Shown here in pieces: positions 3,803 to 52,256 of a DNA stretch of 64,000 bases. Position 1 is the first letter of the stretch, and every line of letters begins with the position of its first letter. The position numbers and the translations under genes are program-made. The notes beneath the pieces were generated by a model. That model made no database searches. It was not told the DNA's origin and worked only from the letters and a program-made list of their open reading frames with translations. The DNA comes from an uncultured archaeon (GTDB lineage Archaea; Asgardarchaeota; Thorarchaeia; Thorarchaeales; Thorarchaeaceae), in assembly GCA_964558645.1 (NCBI GenBank), contig CAZLEV010000007.1, positions 64,001-128,000 on the forward strand, in the 5' to 3' direction.

Positions 3803-4738
3803 TCATTCATCTTTGTTGAGTTGGACCTTCGGATAGTATGCTAGACCTGTCCCTCCAAGGATGTCTACCTTGTCCAGTCGTGCACCACACGCAGCACAAT
3901 CAAGTACAATTCTAGAGTCCGCCGAAGCCGTACTACAGCTGTTGCAGAGTAGTTCCACATCTAAGACATTCAAGTTGGCAACATCGATAGACTTCCTGCA
4001 GTGTTGGCATGCTACCTCAAGTAGATCGTCCACTATCACGGTTTGAGTCCTCTTGCCGCAGTGGGGACAGAAGATTTGGTAAACTTTGTAGAGGTCTACA
4101 CTTCCGCAACTGGGGCACGACAGAAGAACATGGATTTCACTCGAGCCGCATTTTCTACACTGAATCTTTCTGCCATACGTCTTGGCCACAATCACGCCAG
4201 CATTCTCAAGATCACTGAGGGTTCGTGACACTTCTTCATCAGAGCCAGAGAGGCGGTGAGAAGCCTCTGGATATACCTCAACTCCCTTCATGACGCTACG
4301 CGGACGCAAGACCTCAATGTGTCCTTCAATCATGTCCTGCAAGAGCGCCCTGACTTCCTTCTGTTGAAGCAAATCATCTCCAGTTGACCGCTCTAGTAGC
4401 TGGTTAAGTCTCGTGAATGCTCTACTTATCTCGGTGTCCCAATCGGTGCTGTTGAAGTCAATCTCTTCAGAGAGTCTCTGCAGGTTTCTCTCAACGAGCT
4501 GTGGTTTATCGTCCCTGTCTAACAGAACTGCTATGCAGTTGGGAGACTGTAACAAGGATATCACAAGTCCCCTATTCAAGTTGCAGTAGCCGATTCTGGC
4601 CTCTTGGTTGACTCCGTGTCCCATGAAGATCGCAACGGCATCCTCACTACTGAGTTCCTGTTCATCAGGGGGATATGCTCGGCCGACCATGGGTCCCAGA
4701 CGGTCGTCCCACCAGATAGAAAACATTGCCTTTGGCAT
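3803..4738 (-). CDS. uDENN/longin-like N-terminus fused to a wHTH + multi-CxxC zinc-binding (TackOD1-like) domain
   Basis: FSIWWDDRLGPMVGRAYP resembles the uDENN/NPRL2 start motif. The C-terminal half has six CxxC pairs after a helix-turn-helix segment (LSDLENAGVI). Confidence 0.6.
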   Translation of the reverse strand: MPKAMFSIWWDDRLGPMVGRAYPPDEQELSSEDAVAIFMGHGVNQEARIGYCNLNRGLVISLLQSPNCIAVLLDRDDKPQLVERNLQRLSEEIDFNSTDWDTEISRAFTRLNQLLERSTGDDLLQQKEVRALLQDMIEGHIEVLRPRSVMKGVEVYPEASHRLSGSDEEVSRTLSDLENAGVIVAKTYGRKIQCRKCGSSEIHVLLSCPSCGSVDLYKVYQIFCPHCGKRTQTVIVDDLLEVACQHCRKSIDVANLNVLDVELLCNSCSTASADSRIVLDCAACGARLDKVDILGGTGLAYYPKVQLNKDE

Positions 4739-4892
4739 GGTCTGCAGACGGTCTCCACATGTTTTGGTGTTTGTTCCCTTATCGGCTTAATAGCGTTGGG
4801 TGCATGAACTCGATGGACGGTAAAGTATAAAACCACGCCTCTGGGTTCGACCGTTACAGAACGAGACTTGGTTATACAAGGGTGTCAGATAG

Positions 4893-6632
4893 ATGTTCTC
4901 CAGACAGATAACGAAATCAATTGTACTAATGATGTGCATATGGTTGGCTCTGAGCCCGACGTTTTCCAGAGTACACAATATGAGCAACTCCTTCACTGAG
5001 GCAAACACTGTTCATGAGCTTGCAGAAATCTCGATCGAGGATGTAAAGGACATTGAAATGGAGAATGGTACTCGTGGTGAGAGAATAGTCTGGAATGCAA
5101 CTGCCGAAGAACCGAAGAATTTCACCATTACCAGAGATGGAGATGACTACGATTCGGGGGACTGGGACGGTGGGCTTCTCACGGTGGACTTGGACCATCT
5201 CTATGAACAGAATCTCACTTACTCGTTGAATGTGACATTTACCTTTGTCTGTACGGTATTCAATCAGGCGAATGAATCTGCATCCGATGCCGTTGATGTC
5301 ACTGTTTATCCTGATGAGAGACCACCAATCATAGAGGCGCCTGACGATTTCGAGTACGAAGAGGGGAGTTTTGGTCACGAGATTCGATGGAACATAACTG
5401 AATCAAACCCCGATTTCTACAACATCACGAGGCAATCAAATCAAGATACAGACAATTTCACAATAATCGAGAGTGGTGCCTGGGATGGAAGCAATATCAC
5501 TCTCAATGTTGATGGATTGAATGCATCTTATTGGTATGCCTTCACTCTGTTTGTGAATGATACTCTGGGATTCAACGCCACCAGTACAGTCAACGTCACT
5601 GTGTACCCTGACCTCAGCGATCCCGAGCTGTCCTCGGCTGAGGATGTTACATATGAGTTCGGTGCCAAGGGTAATAGCATATCTTGGTTCGCCTACGATA
5701 GCAACCCTAGCAATCTTTCGCTGACAGTGTATATCCACTACATCAATGAAACATATGGCAATACAACAAATCTGCATACCCCCCAGAACTTCACGGCTGA
5801 TTGGAGCTTCGATAAGCCCAAGGGGGATAACATCACATTCACACTTGACTATCTATACCTAGGCAACTATACATTTGAGTTGACGGTCTTTGACGCTTAT
5901 GGTCGCAACGCCTCTGATTCTGCGAATGTGACTGTCTTTAGGGACTTGCGTGCTCCTATTGTATCTACTAATGACAGCTTTTCCTATGAGGAAGGATTCA
6001 CTGGATATTCTATAGTCTGGTCCGCAGAGGAAAACAACCCAAGACTCTTCAACTTAACTCTAAACGGTTCGGTTCTTCAAGCTGGTGCCTGGGATGGGAA
6101 GAACATAACCACCAGCGCTGACGGATTGTCAGTAGGTTCTCATACATTCAATCTGACACTGGTAGACTATTTCAATCAGACTACGATATCACTTGTTGGT
6201 GTTACAGTCACCCCTGATTCCATTCTTCCTATGGTGAGTCAGCTACAGGTCCTGCAAGCATATGCCTCCCCCGGGATGACCAACATGTCAGTCCAAGCTT
6301 ATGTGTGGGACCTCAATGATGTCAGGAATGTGACTCTTGAATGGGGCACCGACCCCTCAAATCCTGCGAACAAGAGCATGGATCGAATGTCGAATGATTT
6401 CTACTATGCATCAGTGGGCGCTTATCCTGTTGGAACAAAGGTCTGGTATCGTGTGGTAGCCGTGGACAACTCCTCACAGAACAACGCATTCACTACAGAA
6501 TGGACAGTGATCGAGATTCGCGACATACAGAGTCCAAAGACACCTGCGATATTATGGGGAACCATTCTCGCCCTGGGTGTAGTATCAAGCCTGGTCCTGC
6601 TCTCCATCTACTTCAGAACCAAGACTAGATAG
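4893..6632 (+). CDS. Membrane-anchored surface glycoprotein with about 4 Ig-like repeats plus a second Ig-like domain type
   Basis: Signal peptide, repeats of YEEG..G..I.W...E.NP...G.WDG..IT...DGL, many N-x-S/T sequons, C-terminal TM with basic tail. Confidence 0.8.
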   Translation: MFSRQITKSIVLMMCIWLALSPTFSRVHNMSNSFTEANTVHELAEISIEDVKDIEMENGTRGERIVWNATAEEPKNFTITRDGDDYDSGDWDGGLLTVDLDHLYEQNLTYSLNVTFTFVCTVFNQANESASDAVDVTVYPDERPPIIEAPDDFEYEEGSFGHEIRWNITESNPDFYNITRQSNQDTDNFTIIESGAWDGSNITLNVDGLNASYWYAFTLFVNDTLGFNATSTVNVTVYPDLSDPELSSAEDVTYEFGAKGNSISWFAYDSNPSNLSLTVYIHYINETYGNTTNLHTPQNFTADWSFDKPKGDNITFTLDYLYLGNYTFELTVFDAYGRNASDSANVTVFRDLRAPIVSTNDSFSYEEGFTGYSIVWSAEENNPRLFNLTLNGSVLQAGAWDGKNITTSADGLSVGSHTFNLTLVDYFNQTTISLVGVTVTPDSILPMVSQLQVLQAYASPGMTNMSVQAYVWDLNDVRNVTLEWGTDPSNPANKSMDRMSNDFYYASVGAYPVGTKVWYRVVAVDNSSQNNAFTTEWTVIEIRDIQSPKTPAILWGTILALGVVSSLVLLSIYFRTKTR

Positions 6633-45122: not shown

Positions 45123-46292
45123 TCACATCTCTGTTTCGATGAAGCCTTCCACAAACCTAGAACTGGCCTTCGGCGCCTGTTTCATATCCTTGGCGTACAT
45201 AGCATGTCTCATCAGTCTGTCAAGAGCGACAGTATAGGCATCAAGCGCGCTCCATCCCTCAGATGAACTGTGATACTGACCGTTCACTGTTCTCAGGTTC
45301 ATCCGACATTGAACGAGCGTTCTTTTGCCAGCTACAGATCCTTGGGTCTTCATATACACGAAGAGGATGCCCTTTCCCAGAGTCGTATCGAATTTCTTTC
45401 TGAACGACGTGAAGTTCTGCATCATTATCTCTCTATCTCGGCCCGATATCTCAACCGAGGGCTTGATAGAGAACTGAATCGTGAGACGTCTCGATTCGAT
45501 TGCTTCTCGCGCTAGGGGTTCGAGGAAGTCTAGTTTTGTGACTATCCCGGTCATACGGTCTTCCTTTGTCACGACGAGGCACGATACTTGTTCCCTCTTC
45601 ATTTTGGATACGCAATCCTTCAGAGTGTTCCGTTCGGTCACTGTGACAACGGGCGAGCTCATGACTCCTCGGATCTCAATACCCATCACCCCGTATCTCT
45701 CTCCAATGCGTTCTCCTTTTGTTGTCCGACTTCTGATCTTGTAGACGAGGTCTATGATGTCCTGAATGCTTACCATGCCGATAGTCCTTCCGTCCTCGAC
45801 AACAGGTGCGTGAGATATGCCATGCTCTCTGAAAAGATTCAGTACAGACGCGGCTGTATCCTCGGGCTCCACGACTTCCGGCTTTCTTGACATAATCTCC
45901 TCAACCGGTAAATCCCCCAATGAACCTGATAAGACGCTCTCGAGTATCTGATCGCGCGTTACGATTCCTCTGAATCTCTGTCCCGCATATACTGGAAGCT
46001 GTGCTGCACCGCTCTCAATCATCAGTCTAGCTGCCTCACTGAGAGTATCGCGCATCTGAACCTGAGGAGGTTTCTGTATCAACTTCCTGATTGACACATT
46101 CGCAGGGTTCAGTCTTGATCTCCTCAGTCTTCTCAACGAGATCATACCAACGTATTCGCCTTTCCTGTCTCTGACAGAGAGGGCTTCAACTCCAAGTTCC
46201 TTGAGTCTTGCAAGACATGAGGTAAGACTATCAGTGTCAGTGACCGACTCGGTGATTTCGCTGTAAATATTCTGAACATGAAGGTCATCCAT
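45123..46292 (-). CDS. 4x CBS domain protein with C-terminal HPF/RaiA (S30AE)-like domain; ribosome hibernation factor candidate
   Basis: Four CBS repeats (e.g. VEEIMSRKP...GISHAPVVEDGRTIGMVS). The C-terminal beta-alpha-beta-beta-beta-alpha region ends YHSSSEGWSALDAYTVALDRLMRH, like the HPF dlyxAidxaxdkLxrq motif. Confidence 0.75.
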   Translation of the reverse strand: MDDLHVQNIYSEITESVTDTDSLTSCLARLKELGVEALSVRDRKGEYVGMISLRRLRRSRLNPANVSIRKLIQKPPQVQMRDTLSEAARLMIESGAAQLPVYAGQRFRGIVTRDQILESVLSGSLGDLPVEEIMSRKPEVVEPEDTAASVLNLFREHGISHAPVVEDGRTIGMVSIQDIIDLVYKIRSRTTKGERIGERYGVMGIEIRGVMSSPVVTVTERNTLKDCVSKMKREQVSCLVVTKEDRMTGIVTKLDFLEPLAREAIESRRLTIQFSIKPSVEISGRDREIMMQNFTSFRKKFDTTLGKGILFVYMKTQGSVAGKRTLVQCRMNLRTVNGQYHSSSEGWSALDAYTVALDRLMRHAMYAKDMKQAPKASSRFVEGFIETEM

Positions 46293-46436: not shown

Positions 46437-47282
46437 TCACTCAAGTTCTACGCGGGCCACAACGGGTAAATGGTCACTCGCCATAGCTGTGGACACAACC
46501 ACACATGTTAGCACGGTAATGTCAGGGCTTACCCAGATGTAGTCTATCCTTTCGAACGGACCTGTGCTGGGCCATGTATAACCTTCGGGAGAATCGAGTG
46601 GATTTCCTGCGGCGGTCCATGTATCATTGAGATGTTTCGAGATGTCTTGGTAGATTGTGTCGTCTGGGCTCTCAACTCCCGGTTCGGGCTGGCCTGTTGG
46701 GAGGGTATTGAAATCACCCATTAGGACCTTAGGGCCGGAGGTAGCATTCACTGCACTCATCACTTCTTGTGCTTGAGTTGTCCTATCATAGTAGGAGAGT
46801 CCAAGGTGCACTACGAACACATTTAGATCGAGCGAGCCAATCCTGACAACGGTTTCAAGCATGACACGCGGCAATTCCTCATGTGTCAGAAGATGGTACT
46901 TGGCACTGATGATGGGGTGTTTAGAGAGAAGCGCCACTCCAATTATCTGCTCGTTCGAAGGAGGACCGAAGTAGCTGTGCATTCCAAGTTGCGTCGAGAG
47001 CCAGAGCACTGAGTCTATGTTCATAGAGCTAACCCTTCCTGAATCAGACTCCTGTAGACCTACTATGTCTGCCTCAGAATTCAGAATTGTATCACGGACA
47101 TACTCAAGGTTCACTGAGCCATCCGGGGTGTAACCTTGGTAGATGTTGTAGGTCATGACAGTAATAGTCTCAGATGCTGGGGCTTCAGGAGTTGGAGCCA
47201 AAGAGAGAACAAGGCCTGAGGCTGTTCCTATCAAGAAGACAATTGCAAGGGTTGTTACTGTTTTGTGAATAGACGAATCCAC
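46437..47282 (-). CDS. Membrane-anchored EEP (endonuclease/exonuclease/phosphatase) protein, similar to the Cwh43 C-terminal domain
   Basis: MTYNI, GLQESD, GVALLSKHPI, VVHL, LMGDFN, RIDYIW, SDHLPV; N-terminal TM. Confidence 0.88.
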   Translation of the reverse strand: MDSSIHKTVTTLAIVFLIGTASGLVLSLAPTPEAPASETITVMTYNIYQGYTPDGSVNLEYVRDTILNSEADIVGLQESDSGRVSSMNIDSVLWLSTQLGMHSYFGPPSNEQIIGVALLSKHPIISAKYHLLTHEELPRVMLETVVRIGSLDLNVFVVHLGLSYYDRTTQAQEVMSAVNATSGPKVLMGDFNTLPTGQPEPGVESPDDTIYQDISKHLNDTWTAAGNPLDSPEGYTWPSTGPFERIDYIWVSPDITVLTCVVVSTAMASDHLPVVARVELE

Positions 47283-48487
47283 TAGTTAAGCACCTCCTTG
47301 TTGCCGAGTGCTAGAGCGAGGGGTACTGTTGCAGCGAGTGCAAACGATGAAATAATCAGATAAGGGGTAATGCCCTCAAGGGCTGGGAGTATCTGTCCTG
47401 CAACAAGGGCGAGAACATAGAGCAGTGTAAGGAGCAGGAGGATCAGCATTCCGGAGAAATGGAATAGTGCATGGTCTGTGAGAGTCGCGTTGCGAGAGCC
47501 AAGCAAGCCCCAGAGCAGTCGTAGATTGAGCATGAACACGAAGGTGGTTATGCCCGCCAAGACACCGGCTAAAGGCGAGTGCAGATATGCAAAGTCAAGG
47601 GCTGCTAGAAGGGCCAAGAGATTTAGTGCTGCAAGAGTGGGCTTGCGACTCAATTGCTGAACTAATCTTGTGTTGAGAACTGCCAGAGCGTAGGTGATGA
47701 GGCCGAGAATAACTGAGAGTCCAGCAATCTCATAGGAACTGGTGGTCCATCGAGCTATTACATTGGGATACGCTAAGAAGGTGAGAAATGCAAACATCAC
47801 TCCTCCAAACCCCAGACCAGCCGCGAACACTGCACCTCTTGATATTGAGGAAGGCTCGCTTACCTGTGAAGAAGCCACGGCTGACGGAAGCAGATGACTC
47901 AGATAGGCAAACGACCCAGCGAGAACACACAAGAGTGGGGCTATCACAATTCCGAGTGGACCAGTGGACAAGTCCCAGGTGATGCCAAGGGTTCTTAGCA
48001 TGAGATCACCTGCAATAGCCAGCGAGAAGGCTGCACTGAAGAGGTTGGGAACTGACAAAGCAGGACTCGGTTCGGCTTTGAACTGGGATTCCGTGGCAAC
48101 TGGAAGATACATGCCGTAGAACAAGACAGTCAGTCCCGCAGTAATCATGTAGAGCATAGCAGTTGTCTGAACAAAAGGCATGATGAATCGAAACAGGATG
48201 ACTCCTATCACACTAGACACTCTCAGAGACTCAGCTTGAGCATTCCGAAATGGTATAACCACGGCAGGTGATAGCAGTAAGAAAATAAGCGCAACAGAAG
48301 GTCCCAACGACATTGCACCAAGGTTCTGGAAGTATATCTGACCAATGAACTCTCTGACGCTCTGGAGAAAGAATAGAGTCATCATGAGGGGCAGTAGTAG
48401 ATGATTCATGAGTAAGCTCAACTCATCTCTTGAGAAGGCGTCTGTCACCCTCTTGGCTAGAGCTTGGGTAGATGTTCTTTCGGTCAT
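47282..48487 (-). CDS. Multi-pass membrane protein (Cwh43/PGAP2IP TM-region-like), coupled to the EEP gene
   Basis: About 12 TM. Its TAG stop shares the G with the GTG start of the EEP gene; AAGGAGGTG lies just upstream. LAYPNVIARWT recalls the Cwh43 'IxxW' TM motif. Confidence 0.7.
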   Translation of the reverse strand: MTERTSTQALAKRVTDAFSRDELSLLMNHLLLPLMMTLFFLQSVREFIGQIYFQNLGAMSLGPSVALIFLLLSPAVVIPFRNAQAESLRVSSVIGVILFRFIMPFVQTTAMLYMITAGLTVLFYGMYLPVATESQFKAEPSPALSVPNLFSAAFSLAIAGDLMLRTLGITWDLSTGPLGIVIAPLLCVLAGSFAYLSHLLPSAVASSQVSEPSSISRGAVFAAGLGFGGVMFAFLTFLAYPNVIARWTTSSYEIAGLSVILGLITYALAVLNTRLVQQLSRKPTLAALNLLALLAALDFAYLHSPLAGVLAGITTFVFMLNLRLLWGLLGSRNATLTDHALFHFSGMLILLLLTLLYVLALVAGQILPALEGITPYLIISSFALAATVPLALALGNKEVLN

Positions 48488-48914
48488 CGTTCATCACCTT
48501 GGCATACAGGCCATGAGTCTGGTGTTAAACCGGGACAAAAGCGTTTTCATGCTCATGGCCCTGTTTCTCTATTGAATGAAACGCCTTACATCAGCTTCTT
48601 TTGGTGTACTCCAAGATAAATGAATTCTGACTATTTTGACTCAGGTCTTTCTACCAATTCATAGATTAAGTTCACTATCGACTCGACCACCGAGTCGTCT
48701 TTGGTCACAATGCCGACTTCCCAAGTTGAGCCGCCTGCTGAACTGCTGTTGAGGTCCATCGAAGAGGTGCTGGCTTAGCCCTATGAAACGGATTTCCTAG
48801 TAGTGCGTTCTAGGAGCAGATCAGGACATAAAAGCGGGCAAATGAGATGTATTTCACGAGTAAGATGCAAAGCTGAGATTCTTCTTGCCTATTCTTCTGC
48901 TTTCATGAACTCGT

Positions 48915-49439
48915 TCACGCTGTAAGCCTCTTTCGCCTCAGAGCAATTATGACTATAACAGTAATACCTCCAAGGATACCTACCGCAAGCAGATAATCCA
49001 TGCTGGTCAGATTGAAAAAGGGTGCGGGTTCTGCGCTCGTAACTGTGACCCAGACAGTATCAAATGACATATTGCCAGCCATATCTCGAACGACTACTGT
49101 GATATTATGGATGCCAACTCCCAGACCATCCAATTCGAAGACAATCTCGATTGGACTTGTATCCCATGCACCATAATCGGAGATTGTTCCATTGTTGAAA
49201 ATCACATATCCATAGGGATTATCGTCAGAGCATACCCAGATGATGGTTCTACCAGTTGTTCCCTCTGTCATCGTCACATTCTCTGGAGATGAGATGGTAG
49301 GTGGTGTAATGTCACCATGTGCATTTCCGTATGCTGTAACTGGCTCTGCAGCAAAGCCAAGAAACAGCACGATGCCCATGAAAACAATCGATGCCACCTT
49401 TCGTTTTCTCAAGAAGAAAGAGTGTGAAATCAGCATCAT
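48915..49439 (-). CDS. Small membrane-anchored protein with a single Ig-like repeat
   Basis: Signal peptide; DITPPTISSPEN...EGTTGRTIIW...DGLGVGIHNITVVVRDMAGN...DTVWVTV; TM; RRKR. Confidence 0.8.
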   Translation of the reverse strand: MMLISHSFFLRKRKVASIVFMGIVLFLGFAAEPVTAYGNAHGDITPPTISSPENVTMTEGTTGRTIIWVCSDDNPYGYVIFNNGTISDYGAWDTSPIEIVFELDGLGVGIHNITVVVRDMAGNMSFDTVWVTVTSAEPAPFFNLTSMDYLLAVGILGGITVIVIIALRRKRLTA

Positions 49440-49709: not shown

Positions 49710-52256
49710 TTGCTTGCCCTAGATACAGATACTGGGATTGCGACGATGACAAAGCTGACGAGTTCCTCGATATTCGTCCTACTGCTATTCATCGGCTTCG
49801 GTTTCTCCAGCATTGGTATTAGCATCTCTTTTACTGGGGCTATCCCTGTTGGTCAAAGGCAGTACGTGATTCCTGCCGGCGCCTACATCCCCCATTCACC
49901 TATCACCATCACCAACAACACCGACTTTTTCAGACAGGGCTGGCCCGGAAATGGTACTGAAGATGACCCGTATGTCATAGAGAGTTTCAACATCACAGCT
50001 AGTTCCACAGGCATTAAAGTAAGCAACACAGATGTCTATTTTGAGGTTCGAAACTGTCTGATTTCTGCTCCAAGTCAATCGAGCAGTGATGGAATTGTCC
50101 TTGAGAATGTGACCCATGGGACTGTAAAGGGGTGTGTTGTTGAATTATATAGTGCAGGAGTGCACCTTTGGTCATCTTTCTCATGCAGGCTGGCAAACAA
50201 CACGGTTTCGAATAATGAATTGGGGTTTAGTGTTTCTTCTTCTTCCAGCATCTCCCTCATGGATAATACAGCCACAAGTAATGGCATATATGGGGTCTAT
50301 ATCTATGGCTCCGATTCTTGTACCTTGGTCCACAACACAGCCCGAAAGAACAGATATGGTTTCTATCTCCTCAGGTGCAATTCCTCCACCCTGACGAACA
50401 ATACTGCAACTAGGAATGAATACGGGTTTTATATCCGCTCAGCGTCATGTACCATGATGGACAACACAGCCACTGACAACACCTATGGATTCTACCTCTC
50501 TGCCCATCATGAGTTTTTTGGTTCCATCGGTTCCTACACCTTGACTCACAACACAGCCACCGATAATGACTATGGATTTTCACTCTTCTCAATGTCCTCA
50601 AAGTCACCATGCATCCTGATTCACAACATAGCCACTAGAAATGCCTATGGCATCCACCTTGCATATTCTTCTGACTGTATCCTAACAAATAATACACTCA
50701 ATAACAATGGATTGGTATTTGATGGGTATCTTCTGGCTCACTGGTTACACAACATGTCAGATAACACAGTCAATGACAGACCCCTTGGTTACTTCAAGTC
50801 GGTCAACGACACGGTCATCGATGGTGACCAGTACGGGCAGGTGATCCTTGCTAACTGCTCCCGCATCGTGGTGAAAAATGGAACTTTCATTGCTGCCTCG
50901 ATTGGCATCCAGCTTGCGTTCAGCACAAACTGTACCTTGACTCACAACACAGCCATGAACAATGCCGTGAGCGGTATTCATCTCTCAGAATCGCTCAGTT
51001 GCATCATGAAGAATAATACACTCAATAACAATGGATTGGTATTTGATGGGTATCTTCTGGCTCACTGGTTACACAACATGTCAGATAACACAGTCAATGA
51101 CAGACCCCTTGGTTACTTCAAGTCGGTCAACGACACGGTCATCGATGGTGACCAGTACGGGCAGGTGATCCTTGCTAACTGCTCCCGCATCGTGGTGAAA
51201 AATGGAACTTTCATTGCTGCCTCGATTGGCATCCAGCTTGCGTTCAGCACAAACTGTACCTTGACTCACAACACAGCCACTGGGAATGGAGAATCGGGAT
51301 TCTTTCTTGCCAGCTCTGATTCTTGTATCCTGACTCACAACACGGCTATCGGTAATAGACACAGTGGATTCCGTTTCAGTGGGTCCGATTCTTGCATCCT
51401 GACTCACAACACAGCCACTGGGAATGGAGAATCGGGATTCTTTCTTGCCAGCTCTGATTCTTGTATCCTGACTCACAACACGGCTATCGGTAATAGACAC
51501 AGTGGATTCCGTTTCAGTGGGTCCGATTCTTGCATCCTGACTCACAACATGGCCACCGAAAATGATCATGGTTTCTATCTTAGCTCTAGTTTCTGCATCC
51601 TGACGAACAACACTGCTGCATTGAATGGATTTGGCATTTGTCTACCCCATCCCTCCTTTGGAAATCTCTTATTGTTCAACAGGCTCTTCTACAACAGCCA
51701 GAGCAATGGTCATGATGATGGCGGGCAGAACAGCTGGGACAATGGAATACATGGTAATTACTGGGGCGATTACGGTGGAGAGGGTACATACCTTGTACCT
51801 GGCTTTGCTGGAAGTGTCGATCATCATCCCTATGTCCTTGAAGCCTGTCCCCCCACCATCTTAATCTATGGGCCTGCAATCCTTCAGTATGAGGAGGGGG
51901 CTACCGGACATTTGATTACATGGGGACTGGAGCACCCTCATCCCGGTGACTATGTCATCTACCGGAATGGCTCAGTGGTGAGGGCGGGAGTCTGGAACTG
52001 CAGTTCGGAGAACATTACCATCTCCGTGGACGGGCTGACGGTGGGGCTCTACAACTACACGCTGGTGGTGAGGGACATTGTGGACAACCGTGCGGCAGCC
52101 GCAGTCTTTGTGCGAGTGGTGCAGAAAGGGTCGTCACCGGAGGAGCCCGAAGACAGGGGAGATGTATTCTCACTGCTCGTAATGGTGTCAGCTGCGGCCA
52201 TAATGGGAGAGGTTGCAATTGCCATCGTGATTGTCAGGGACAGAAGGGAGCACTGA
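49710..52256 (+). CDS. Beta-helix (NosD/CASH) surface glycoprotein + 1 Ig-like repeat + TM
   Basis: HSPITITNNTDF...GNGTEDDPYVIE cap, PbH1 repeats, NSWDNGIHGNYWGDY, YEEGATGHLITW, TM. True start may be ATG 49746. Confidence 0.88.
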   Translation: MLALDTDTGIATMTKLTSSSIFVLLLFIGFGFSSIGISISFTGAIPVGQRQYVIPAGAYIPHSPITITNNTDFFRQGWPGNGTEDDPYVIESFNITASSTGIKVSNTDVYFEVRNCLISAPSQSSSDGIVLENVTHGTVKGCVVELYSAGVHLWSSFSCRLANNTVSNNELGFSVSSSSSISLMDNTATSNGIYGVYIYGSDSCTLVHNTARKNRYGFYLLRCNSSTLTNNTATRNEYGFYIRSASCTMMDNTATDNTYGFYLSAHHEFFGSIGSYTLTHNTATDNDYGFSLFSMSSKSPCILIHNIATRNAYGIHLAYSSDCILTNNTLNNNGLVFDGYLLAHWLHNMSDNTVNDRPLGYFKSVNDTVIDGDQYGQVILANCSRIVVKNGTFIAASIGIQLAFSTNCTLTHNTAMNNAVSGIHLSESLSCIMKNNTLNNNGLVFDGYLLAHWLHNMSDNTVNDRPLGYFKSVNDTVIDGDQYGQVILANCSRIVVKNGTFIAASIGIQLAFSTNCTLTHNTATGNGESGFFLASSDSCILTHNTAIGNRHSGFRFSGSDSCILTHNTATGNGESGFFLASSDSCILTHNTAIGNRHSGFRFSGSDSCILTHNMATENDHGFYLSSSFCILTNNTAALNGFGICLPHPSFGNLLLFNRLFYNSQSNGHDDGGQNSWDNGIHGNYWGDYGGEGTYLVPGFAGSVDHHPYVLEACPPTILIYGPAILQYEEGATGHLITWGLEHPHPGDYVIYRNGSVVRAGVWNCSSENITISVDGLTVGLYNYTLVVRDIVDNRAAAAVFVRVVQKGSSPEEPEDRGDVFSLLVMVSAAAIMGEVAIAIVIVRDRREH
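50688..51279. repeat. Exact 268-nt direct repeat (period 324 nt) inside a CDS
   Basis: 50688-50955 matches 51012-51279 by eye; encodes NNTLNNNGLVFDGY...STNCTLTHNTA twice. Confidence 0.92.
51262..51549. repeat. Exact 138-nt tandem duplication (two beta-helix turns) inside a CDS
   Basis: 51262-51399 equals 51400-51537, plus 12 nt of a third copy. Confidence 0.92.

Follow-up and report, generated by a model that had tools for sequence, protein, structure and literature searches.

A split, two-gene relative of the PGAP2IP/Cwh43 core in a Thorarchaeaceae genome

Can two overlapping archaeal genes be recognized as the two pieces of one membrane enzyme, and, if so, what do they tell us about the eukaryotic lipid remodelases that they resemble? 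The question is raised by a 64,000-nucleotide stretch of DNA (the window) from an uncultured archaeon of the Thorarchaeaceae (Asgardarchaeota; contig CAZLEV010000007.1, positions 64,001 to 128,000), in which a gene for a multi-helix membrane protein is directly followed by one for a membrane-anchored protein with an endonuclease/exonuclease/phosphatase (EEP) domain. From the sequence alone, the original prediction had read this pair as a split version of Cwh43/PGAP2IP and as a possible archaeal ancestor of the lipid remodeling of glycosylphosphatidylinositol (GPI) anchors. In GPI anchors, Cwh43 puts ceramide or ceramide phosphate in place of diacylglycerol or phosphatidic acid (PMC4962981), and the catalytic mechanism of Cwh43 and PGAP2IP, even the role of their EEP domain, is still called vague (PMC10704324).

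We think it probable that each of the two genes supplies one half of a membrane phosphodiesterase that is elsewhere mostly a single protein of ~660 residues, distantly related to the PGAP2IP/Cwh43 core. That the system is real, and that it is a split, distant prokaryotic relative of this core, is well supported. The PGAP2IP-like kind of EEP protein was already known in outline; the split form is new. The features on which the argument turns are as follows.

47282–48487, minus strand: membrane-subunit gene, 401 residues, ATG start (open reading frame list), corresponding to transmembrane helices 1 to 12 (TM1–TM12) of fused PGAP2IP-like proteins
46437–47282, minus strand: EEP phosphodiesterase-subunit gene, 281 residues, GTG start (open reading frame list), matching PF03372 and PF23226
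47280–47284, minus strand: TAG/GTG stop-start overlap of 1 base (shared base 47282), read from the sequence
47291–47299, minus strand: Shine-Dalgarno-like AAGGAGGTG within the 3' end of the membrane gene, 8 nt before the GTG of the EEP gene, read from the sequence
48493–48499, minus strand: Shine-Dalgarno-like AGGTGAT, 5 nt before the membrane-gene ATG at 48487, read from the sequence

The two reading frames, the one-base overlap and the Shine-Dalgarno-like motif before the second gene lie exactly where they had been placed: on the minus strand, the stop codon TAG of the membrane gene occupies 47284–47282 and the start codon GTG of the EEP gene 47282–47280. This overlap indicates that the two genes are translationally coupled. 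In the database copy, the membrane gene begins at Met27 (375 residues). The 401-residue form, starting at 48487, is more likely because homologues align from residue ~10 and AGGTGAT stands 5 nt before its ATG; the AlphaFold2 model has an amphipathic N-terminal helix at residues 6–17. A scan for promoters and terminators, of a bacterial type unsuited to archaea, gave sites no commoner than in shuffled sequence.

What form does the pair take in other genomes? When longer proteins were searched with the EEP protein, 81 relatives of ~500–740 residues were found in Theionarchaea, Anaerolineae, and others, several of them also carrying PF23021, and an exhaustive search with the membrane protein returned both stand-alone forms of ~400 residues and proteins of ~650 residues. 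Residues ~20–391 of the membrane subunit align end to end with the N-terminal ~365 residues of fused proteins of ~650–660 residues. A scan of one genome per species, with an EEP alignment as the query, gave 328 relatives, the best 80 of which are nearly all fused, with 11–14 hydrophobic segments. Within the phylum of the window, 143 of the 301 sampled genomes contain a match to PF23226, the family of PGAP2IP-type EEP domains, in open frames mostly of 640–740 residues and in a minority of 275–350. Chloroflexota, Thermoplasmatota, Theionarchaea, and other Asgard archaea commonly encode the fused form, in which a domain with the fold of the major facilitator superfamily (MFS) precedes an EEP domain. 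In this survey of fused against split forms, which the original prediction had proposed, the fused forms dominate.

The concatenated pair is colinear with the fused proteins, and the cut maps to the short loop that joins TM12 to TM13. A split EEP gene is present in seven Thor-type loci, the window included, with EEP identities of 58–78%. The upstream membrane gene is confirmed in six of these (the window, L003, L004, L005, L008, and L009), with overlaps of 1 or 4 nt; in the seventh, L010, the contig sequence upstream is too short to show it. GGAGGTG-type motifs stand at the same place before the EEP gene in L008 and L009. The flanking genes differ among the Thor-type loci while the pair itself is kept. 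Further splits at the same TM12/TM13 loop occur in one Heimdallarchaeota and one deltaproteobacterial genome, where the upstream genes are homologous to the transmembrane region, and the fused or split state changes at least three times on the tree. Judged by these alignments, the Thor-type pair is a fission of the ~660-residue fused gene in the cytoplasmic TM12–TM13 loop, with the halves kept translationally coupled, and the same-loop split arose independently at least twice outside the Thor-type loci. Three other relatives (L027, L038, and L081, from Methanobacteriota, Thermoplasmatota, and Spirochaetia) are 1036–1131 residues long, with extra N-terminal sequence before the MFS and EEP core, and may represent further domain fusions; the reading frames of L027 and L081 run off the locus at the upstream end.

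Since most relatives are fused, the split might be taken for an artefact or a decaying gene, produced by a frameshift, a nonsense mutation or an assembly error in a fused gene. This we regard as extremely improbable. The same split is seen in seven independent assemblies, with its own start codon, Shine-Dalgarno motif and 1- or 4-nt overlap; both halves are full length and colinear with the fused forms, with every catalytic residue intact; and splits at the same loop arose independently in the Heimdallarchaeota and deltaproteobacterial genomes. The frameshift or pseudogene reading was therefore rejected on the recurrence of the split, the full-length halves and the intact catalytic set.

What, then, are the two halves? 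The upstream protein had been described as having ~12 transmembrane helices, a count borne out by hydropathy, which gives 12 hydrophobic helices with both termini inside by the positive-inside rule, and by a confident 12-helix AlphaFold2 model (pLDDT 91.3, pTM 0.91). When this model was compared with the Protein Data Bank (PDB), every top match was an MFS carrier (probability 1.00, TM-score 0.5–0.63), including SLC37A2/4, FLVCR1/2, MFSD2A, and Spns2. Its best Atlas cluster is a 648-residue Chloroflexota family carrying PF03372 and PF23226 (TM-score 0.80), MFS transporter clusters rank next (0.65–0.71), and an Atlas search with language-model features returned MFS transporters only and no named relative. 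By sequence, the membrane subunit matches no MFS Pfam family at E ≤ 1, nor do its 42 relatives at E ≤ 0.01. Thus, because the PDB matches are all MFS carriers yet no MFS sequence family is matched, the subunit as modeled has a 12-helix, 6+6 MFS fold without sequence-level membership in the superfamily. Most of the near-invariant residues of its family (Y52, D172, P241, R246, and W247) lie in its outer loops.

The downstream protein belongs to the EEP superfamily by both fold and active site. Its AlphaFold2 model (pLDDT 91.2) has an EEP fold after a long N-terminal helix, and Foldseek matched it best to 4ruw (E 5e-20) and also to Tdp2, CNOT6L, and neutral sphingomyelinase. The full catalytic set (Asn, Glu, His, Asp/Asn, Asp, Asp-His) is present as N46, E78, H159, D190, N192, D247, D270, and H271, all invariant across 33 prokaryotic relatives. 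A search of PDB chains by sequence returned two uncharacterized EEP proteins and nothing else, and the PDB searches turned up no solved structure of the PGAP2IP class. In Pfam, the protein matches PF03372 at 80.8 bits and PF23226 at 77.6 bits (cut-off 27; residues 38–222; 77.7 bits in a six-frame genome search). PF23226 and PF23021 have one match each in the archaeon's own genome, and PF23226 is also matched in Caulobacter among the control genomes, so this family alone is not specific for the PGAP2IP/Cwh43 core. NCBIfam gave a generic EEP family, exonuclease III and, at 20.8 bits against a cut-off of 700, the VanJ C-terminal family; these were rejected as the protein's identity because all of the matches fell below threshold. 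The N-terminal signal-anchor helix, residues ~3–31, is the counterpart of TM13 in the fused forms. Hydropathy and the positive-inside rule orient this anchor with its N terminus inside, which places the catalytic domain outside the cell. The EEP subunit, with its complete set of catalytic residues, is probably an active phosphodiesterase of the outer face.

How closely does the pair resemble Cwh43 and PGAP2IP? For the EEP domain, the protein and a fungal Cwh43 fragment, aligned by BLASTP, are 32% identical over 167 residues (E 1e-17), a likeness far above chance. The peptide that the original prediction quoted is residues 75–124 of the EEP protein, and the fungal Cwh43 motif with which it was compared is accurate, being close to the consensus of 16 fungal Cwh43 sequences. 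Rather than grouping with generic bacterial EEP families, the domain matches the PGAP2IP-type family PF23226. For the membrane domain, a profile of 42 prokaryotic transmembrane regions aligned with the 16 fungal Cwh43 sequences at 89.7% (E 1.8e-6) over 307 colinear columns, corresponding to residues 284–614 of 950 in the fungal protein, and the profile of its C-terminal half matched the second six-helix domain of Cwh43 (hhalign 91.8%, E 7e-7). The Pfam family of that second domain, PF23021, matched residues 218–359 of the membrane subunit at 27.1 bits, right at its cut-off of 27 (28.9 bits in the genome search), and matched 10 of 42 family members, the best with an E value of 2e-9. By these profile comparisons, then, the pair is homologous to Cwh43/PGAP2IP in the second six-helix domain and the EEP domain.

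We modeled the complex of the two subunits. The model reached an ipSAE of 0.91 (the median of 3 runs), whereas the best of three controls scored 0.00. It has 185–188 contacts, its runs agree to at least 92%, and the partner pLDDT is no lower than 88. In calibration, the same mark was attained by 58 of the 80 solved complexes and by 2 of the 110 mismatched pairs, counts that hold only roughly because alignments built in this analysis were used. According to PDB searches no like complex has been solved, and the pass is therefore not the memory of a structure. In the model, the EEP anchor helix (residues 2–28) packs on TM5 (149–165) and TM8 (252–271), and EEP residues 49–60, 81–98, 105–114, and 134–138 touch the outer loops of the membrane subunit at 45–57, 165–177, 240–248, and 354–374. 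The contacting EEP loops come after the strands that bear N46 and E78, and they include the ESD..R....N.D stretch common to Cwh43. As modeled, this Cwh43-like stretch is the interface with the membrane domain, which would explain why it marks this subgroup of EEP proteins. Because the N46 and E78 loops rest on the conserved outer loops (Y52, D172, P241, R246, W247), the active-site face would be turned toward the outer mouth of the MFS subunit. The predicted arrangement, a two-subunit enzyme with its catalytic domain outside the membrane, is thus supported by a controlled complex model together with the topology.

What might such an enzyme do? We favor a lipid or glycolipid phosphodiesterase on the outer face of the membrane as the likely function of the pair. 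In the fused ~660-residue form, 12 helices with the MFS fold are followed by a 13th helix and then by an EEP domain outside the cytoplasm; in the pair, the EEP anchor helix would dock in a groove between TM5 and TM8 of the MFS subunit, as it does in the model. The MFS-like subunit would hold or present the portion of a lipid (or of a lipid-linked glycoconjugate) that is embedded in the membrane, and the EEP subunit, with a divalent metal, would cleave, or transfer across, the head-group phosphodiester on the outer face of the membrane. The analogy with Cwh43 is the sole pointer to an inositol-phosphate lipid as a possible substrate, and to name a GPI-like lipid, inositol archaeol or a glycoprotein would be pure conjecture.

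The same parts could be assembled differently. The pair might be a coupled scavenging machine, in which the EEP domain cleaves a soluble or glycan-bound phosphodiester and the MFS subunit, as a true transporter, imports the product. The membrane subunit does have a complete 12-helix MFS fold, its best solved matches are solute carriers, among them the phosphate-sugar antiporters SLC37A2/4 and the choline and ethanolamine carriers FLVCR1/2, and the EEP domain is modeled on its outer mouth. Moreover, the only characterized members of the EEP cluster strip phosphocholine or phosphoethanolamine off GlcNAc (PMC10704324). However, no MFS sequence family is matched even at E ≤ 1; the near-invariant transmembrane-family residues lie mostly in the outer loops that touch the EEP domain, not in the central helices; the anchor helix fills the lateral TM5/TM8 groove, a better fit to a lipid-facing scaffold; the eukaryotic relatives act on lipids (PMC4962981); and catabolic genes were not found as neighbors. 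On balance scavenging seems unlikely, and the substrates that it would call for, phosphocholine or phosphoethanolamine on sugars, glycerophosphodiesters or nucleic acid, are unlikely candidates to the same degree.

The reading that we prefer, a lipid or glycolipid phosphodiesterase in two halves related to the Cwh43/PGAP2IP core, has several observations weighing against it. First, no conserved neighbor and no lipid-pathway or GPI gene stands beside the pair across 84 loci, where the most recurrent neighbor is a response regulator with a GAF domain (7 loci), so that nothing independent points to a lipid substrate. Second, the relationship to Cwh43 is uneven along the membrane subunit. Beyond the borderline score with PF23021, the profile of the N-terminal half shows no sequence similarity to the first six-helix domain of fungal Cwh43 (hhalign 0.5%), a negative that is weak, being of low sensitivity, because the fungal profile is shallow (16 sequences, all fungal and at least 66% identical). 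The Pfam family of that first domain, PF23022, is unmatched at E ≤ 1 in the membrane subunit and is found in 0 of 42 relatives. The claim of a split Cwh43/PGAP2IP homologue therefore stands for the EEP domain and the C-terminal half of the membrane protein, and not, by sequence, for its N-terminal half; we infer the equivalence of the first six-helix domain to that of Cwh43 from the full-length colinearity and the complete MFS fold only. Third, the complex model adds little to the homology with the fused forms because a good score is to be expected when one gene has been split in two, and the active site is placed over the MFS cavity from the contact lists alone.

Fourth, the chemistry may differ from that of Cwh43, because fungal Cwh43 is without several canonical residues that the archaeal enzyme keeps. 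In an alignment that is uncertain near the C terminus and whose eukaryotic rows are fungal only, the fungal EEP domain (rows P0095, P0232, and P0275) has SYLV for GDFN, RTGY for RIDY, and EEH for SDH, whereas the prokaryotic relatives keep the canonical residues. These substitutions suggest that the catalytic site of eukaryotic Cwh43 is modified or reduced.

Is the pair, as was also proposed, an archaeal counterpart or ancestor of GPI-anchor lipid remodeling? It would then exchange or trim the lipid of inositol-phosphate-linked glycolipids or of lipid-anchored surface proteins, and eukaryotic Cwh43/PGAP2IP would descend from such an Asgard gene. Several observations are in keeping with this: the homology to the Cwh43/PGAP2IP core, the placement of the EEP domain outside, topologically equivalent to the lumen of the endoplasmic reticulum, and the presence in the genome of two inositol-1-phosphate synthase genes and a PIG-L family gene. 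In addition, an Asgard origin has been reported for GPI synthesis in general (PMC12872458, 2026), and a clade that unites fungal Cwh43 with the Heimdall/Hod sequences is not rejected by an approximately unbiased (AU) test (p 0.51). On the other side, the AU test accepts fungal Cwh43 with the Thor sequences equally (p 0.51), and the data therefore carry no signal on where the eukaryotes attach. The family occurs no less often in Chloroflexota, Thermoplasmatota, and Theionarchaea than it does in Asgard archaea, and the catalytic residues differ from those of fungal Cwh43. PMC12872458 names neither Cwh43 nor PGAP2 in its main text or in the supplements searched.

In the tree of EEP domains (89 sequences, with eukaryotes represented by closely related fungal Cwh43 only), the Thor split clade has support 99, and its sister group (support 93) consists of fused sequences from Theionarchaea, Methanomassiliicoccales, and related Methanobacteriota bins; the Heimdall/Hod, Hel, and Promethearchaeota sequences lie elsewhere, among Chloroflexota; the Asgard sequences form three or more separate clades; and the fungal Cwh43 branch, ~5 changes per column long, joins at the unresolved base. 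On this tree the Thor split clade represents a derived, fissioned form that clusters with fused proteins of euryarchaea, apart from other Asgard sequences. The MFS and EEP family appears to move between phyla. A search of the archaeon's own genome (92.8% complete) found neither PIG-M nor GWT1, although the control genomes are likewise silent for both families; the two inositol-1-phosphate synthases, the PIG-L family gene, and a weak PIG-U-like match all lie elsewhere, none near the pair, and a DUF998 gene (Frag1 clan) is on another contig. Inositol-1-phosphate synthase says nothing about the pair because it is nearly universal in the phylum (284 of 301 genomes), regardless of the presence of the pair gene.

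Thus, the proposal of an archaeal ancestor of GPI lipid remodeling was not borne out: the family is not Asgard-specific, the fungal branch cannot be placed, and no GPI context was found. The evidence neither refutes nor supports this ancestry, which we judge improbable. Equally improbable, in our estimate, is the broader version in which the MFS and EEP protein is a prokaryotic forerunner of the GPI lipid remodelase and a fused Asgard version, perhaps of Heimdall/Hod type, passed to eukaryotes. One locus deserves separate mention. In L003, genes of the DUF998 (Frag1/PGAP2 clan) and inositol monophosphatase families (213–2230) lie 2–3 kb upstream of the split pair (4001–6063), on the opposite strand. 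Given the Frag1 domain of yeast Cwh43, the proximity of DUF998 is suggestive; it is seen only in that locus.

Among known systems, the closest are PGAP2IP (gene CWH43; PF23022, PF23021, and PF23226) and the C-terminal two-thirds of fungal Cwh43, which, like the pair, consist of a 12-helix region and then a non-cytoplasmic EEP domain. The second six-helix domain and the EEP domain are homologous, and the stretch ESD..R....N.D...L...LGM...GP after the catalytic Glu is common to both. The pair differs in being two genes instead of one polypeptide, in an EEP identity of only ~25–32%, in a first six-helix domain unrecognizable by sequence, in the lack of any GPI context found around it, and in its full canonical catalytic set, where fungal Cwh43 is substituted at GDFN, RIDY, and SDH. 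Moreover, unlike full-length yeast Cwh43, neither protein has an N-terminal Frag1/PGAP2-like domain in Pfam. The fused prokaryotic proteins of ~640–740 residues are colinear with the pair over its full length, with identities of 30–44% in the EEP domain and 21–30% in the transmembrane region and with the same catalytic residues, but they are single polypeptides, whereas the pair is cut between TM12 and TM13.

A 2023 study (PMC10704324) assigned to the EEP cluster of Cwh43p and PGAP2IP an "Asgardarchaeota/Chloroflexota" group that it calls "divergent in size and domain organization." It describes neither the membrane domain nor the split form of this group, and it is the only paper naming PGAP2IP in the literature that we searched; within that literature, whose coverage is incomplete, no description of the MFS fold of the membrane domain or of a split form was found. 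The characterized soluble members of the cluster are Mg/Mn-dependent phosphodiesterases, and sphingomyelinases form a neighboring cluster (PMC10704324). The clostridial phosphodiesterases that act on GlcNAc-6-phosphocholine and -phosphoethanolamine belong to the same cluster as the EEP subunit; they depend on metal and act outside the cell (PMC10704324). Unlike the pair, however, they are soluble, secreted, single-domain proteins of 219–357 residues with no membrane partner, and their sugar specificity is not transferable. Neutral sphingomyelinases C (Bc-SMase and human nSMase) have the EEP fold, depend on Mg, and cut a lipid head-group phosphodiester at the membrane surface, but they lack an MFS partner, and neither by sequence nor by fold are they the closest match; among solved structures, that is the uncharacterized actinobacterial EEP protein 4ruw. 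On the membrane side, LtaA is a lipid carrier with the MFS fold, and LplT-Aas couples an MFS lipid carrier to a lipid-remodeling enzyme, sometimes in a single fused protein. MFSD2A and Spns2 share the 12-helix MFS fold and are among the structural matches of the membrane subunit, which, unlike these lipid carriers, is not a member of the MFS by sequence; for PGAP2IP-like proteins, transport or flipping is only hypothetical.

The genes around the pair in the window have features of their own. The gene that follows the EEP gene directly on its strand, after a gap of 144 nt (45123–46292, minus strand), encodes a 389-residue protein in which Pfam finds CBS domains only, the last ~100 residues having no family match; similar CBS proteins adjoin the pair in only 3 loci. 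On the other side, a gene at 48915–49439 (minus strand) encodes a 174-residue protein that carries a signal peptide, a C-terminal membrane anchor, and a weak match to a HYR-like domain (19.9 bits, under the cut-off). It is divergent to a gene at 49710–52256 (plus strand) for an 848-residue NosD/right-handed beta-helix surface protein, whose C-terminal domain and anchor the 174-residue protein resembles by eye, and the two proteins may share a surface-anchoring module. The 848-residue gene contains two internal tandem duplications: a 324-bp unit in 1.8 copies, 100% identical (50688–51279), and a 138-bp unit in 2.1 copies, 98% identical (51262–51556). Either the beta-helix repeats have expanded here in frame and very recently, or the duplications are an artefact of the assembly.

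In general, three properties of this family bear on the mechanism of Cwh43 and PGAP2IP: the MFS fold of the membrane part, the canonical phosphodiesterase site of the prokaryotic enzymes, and the predicted reassembly of the split version through the 13th helix and the loop that carries the Cwh43 signature. The evolutionary story is more limited because the family is not Asgard-specific, and on present evidence this locus cannot be called a eukaryotic ancestor. Should the forerunner reading nevertheless prove true, the split Thor form would be a natural two-piece system in which to dissect the roles of the membrane and catalytic domains. In either case, the split pair can serve as a tractable prokaryotic model, in two pieces, of how a lipid-linked substrate may be presented to an EEP enzyme by a membrane domain.

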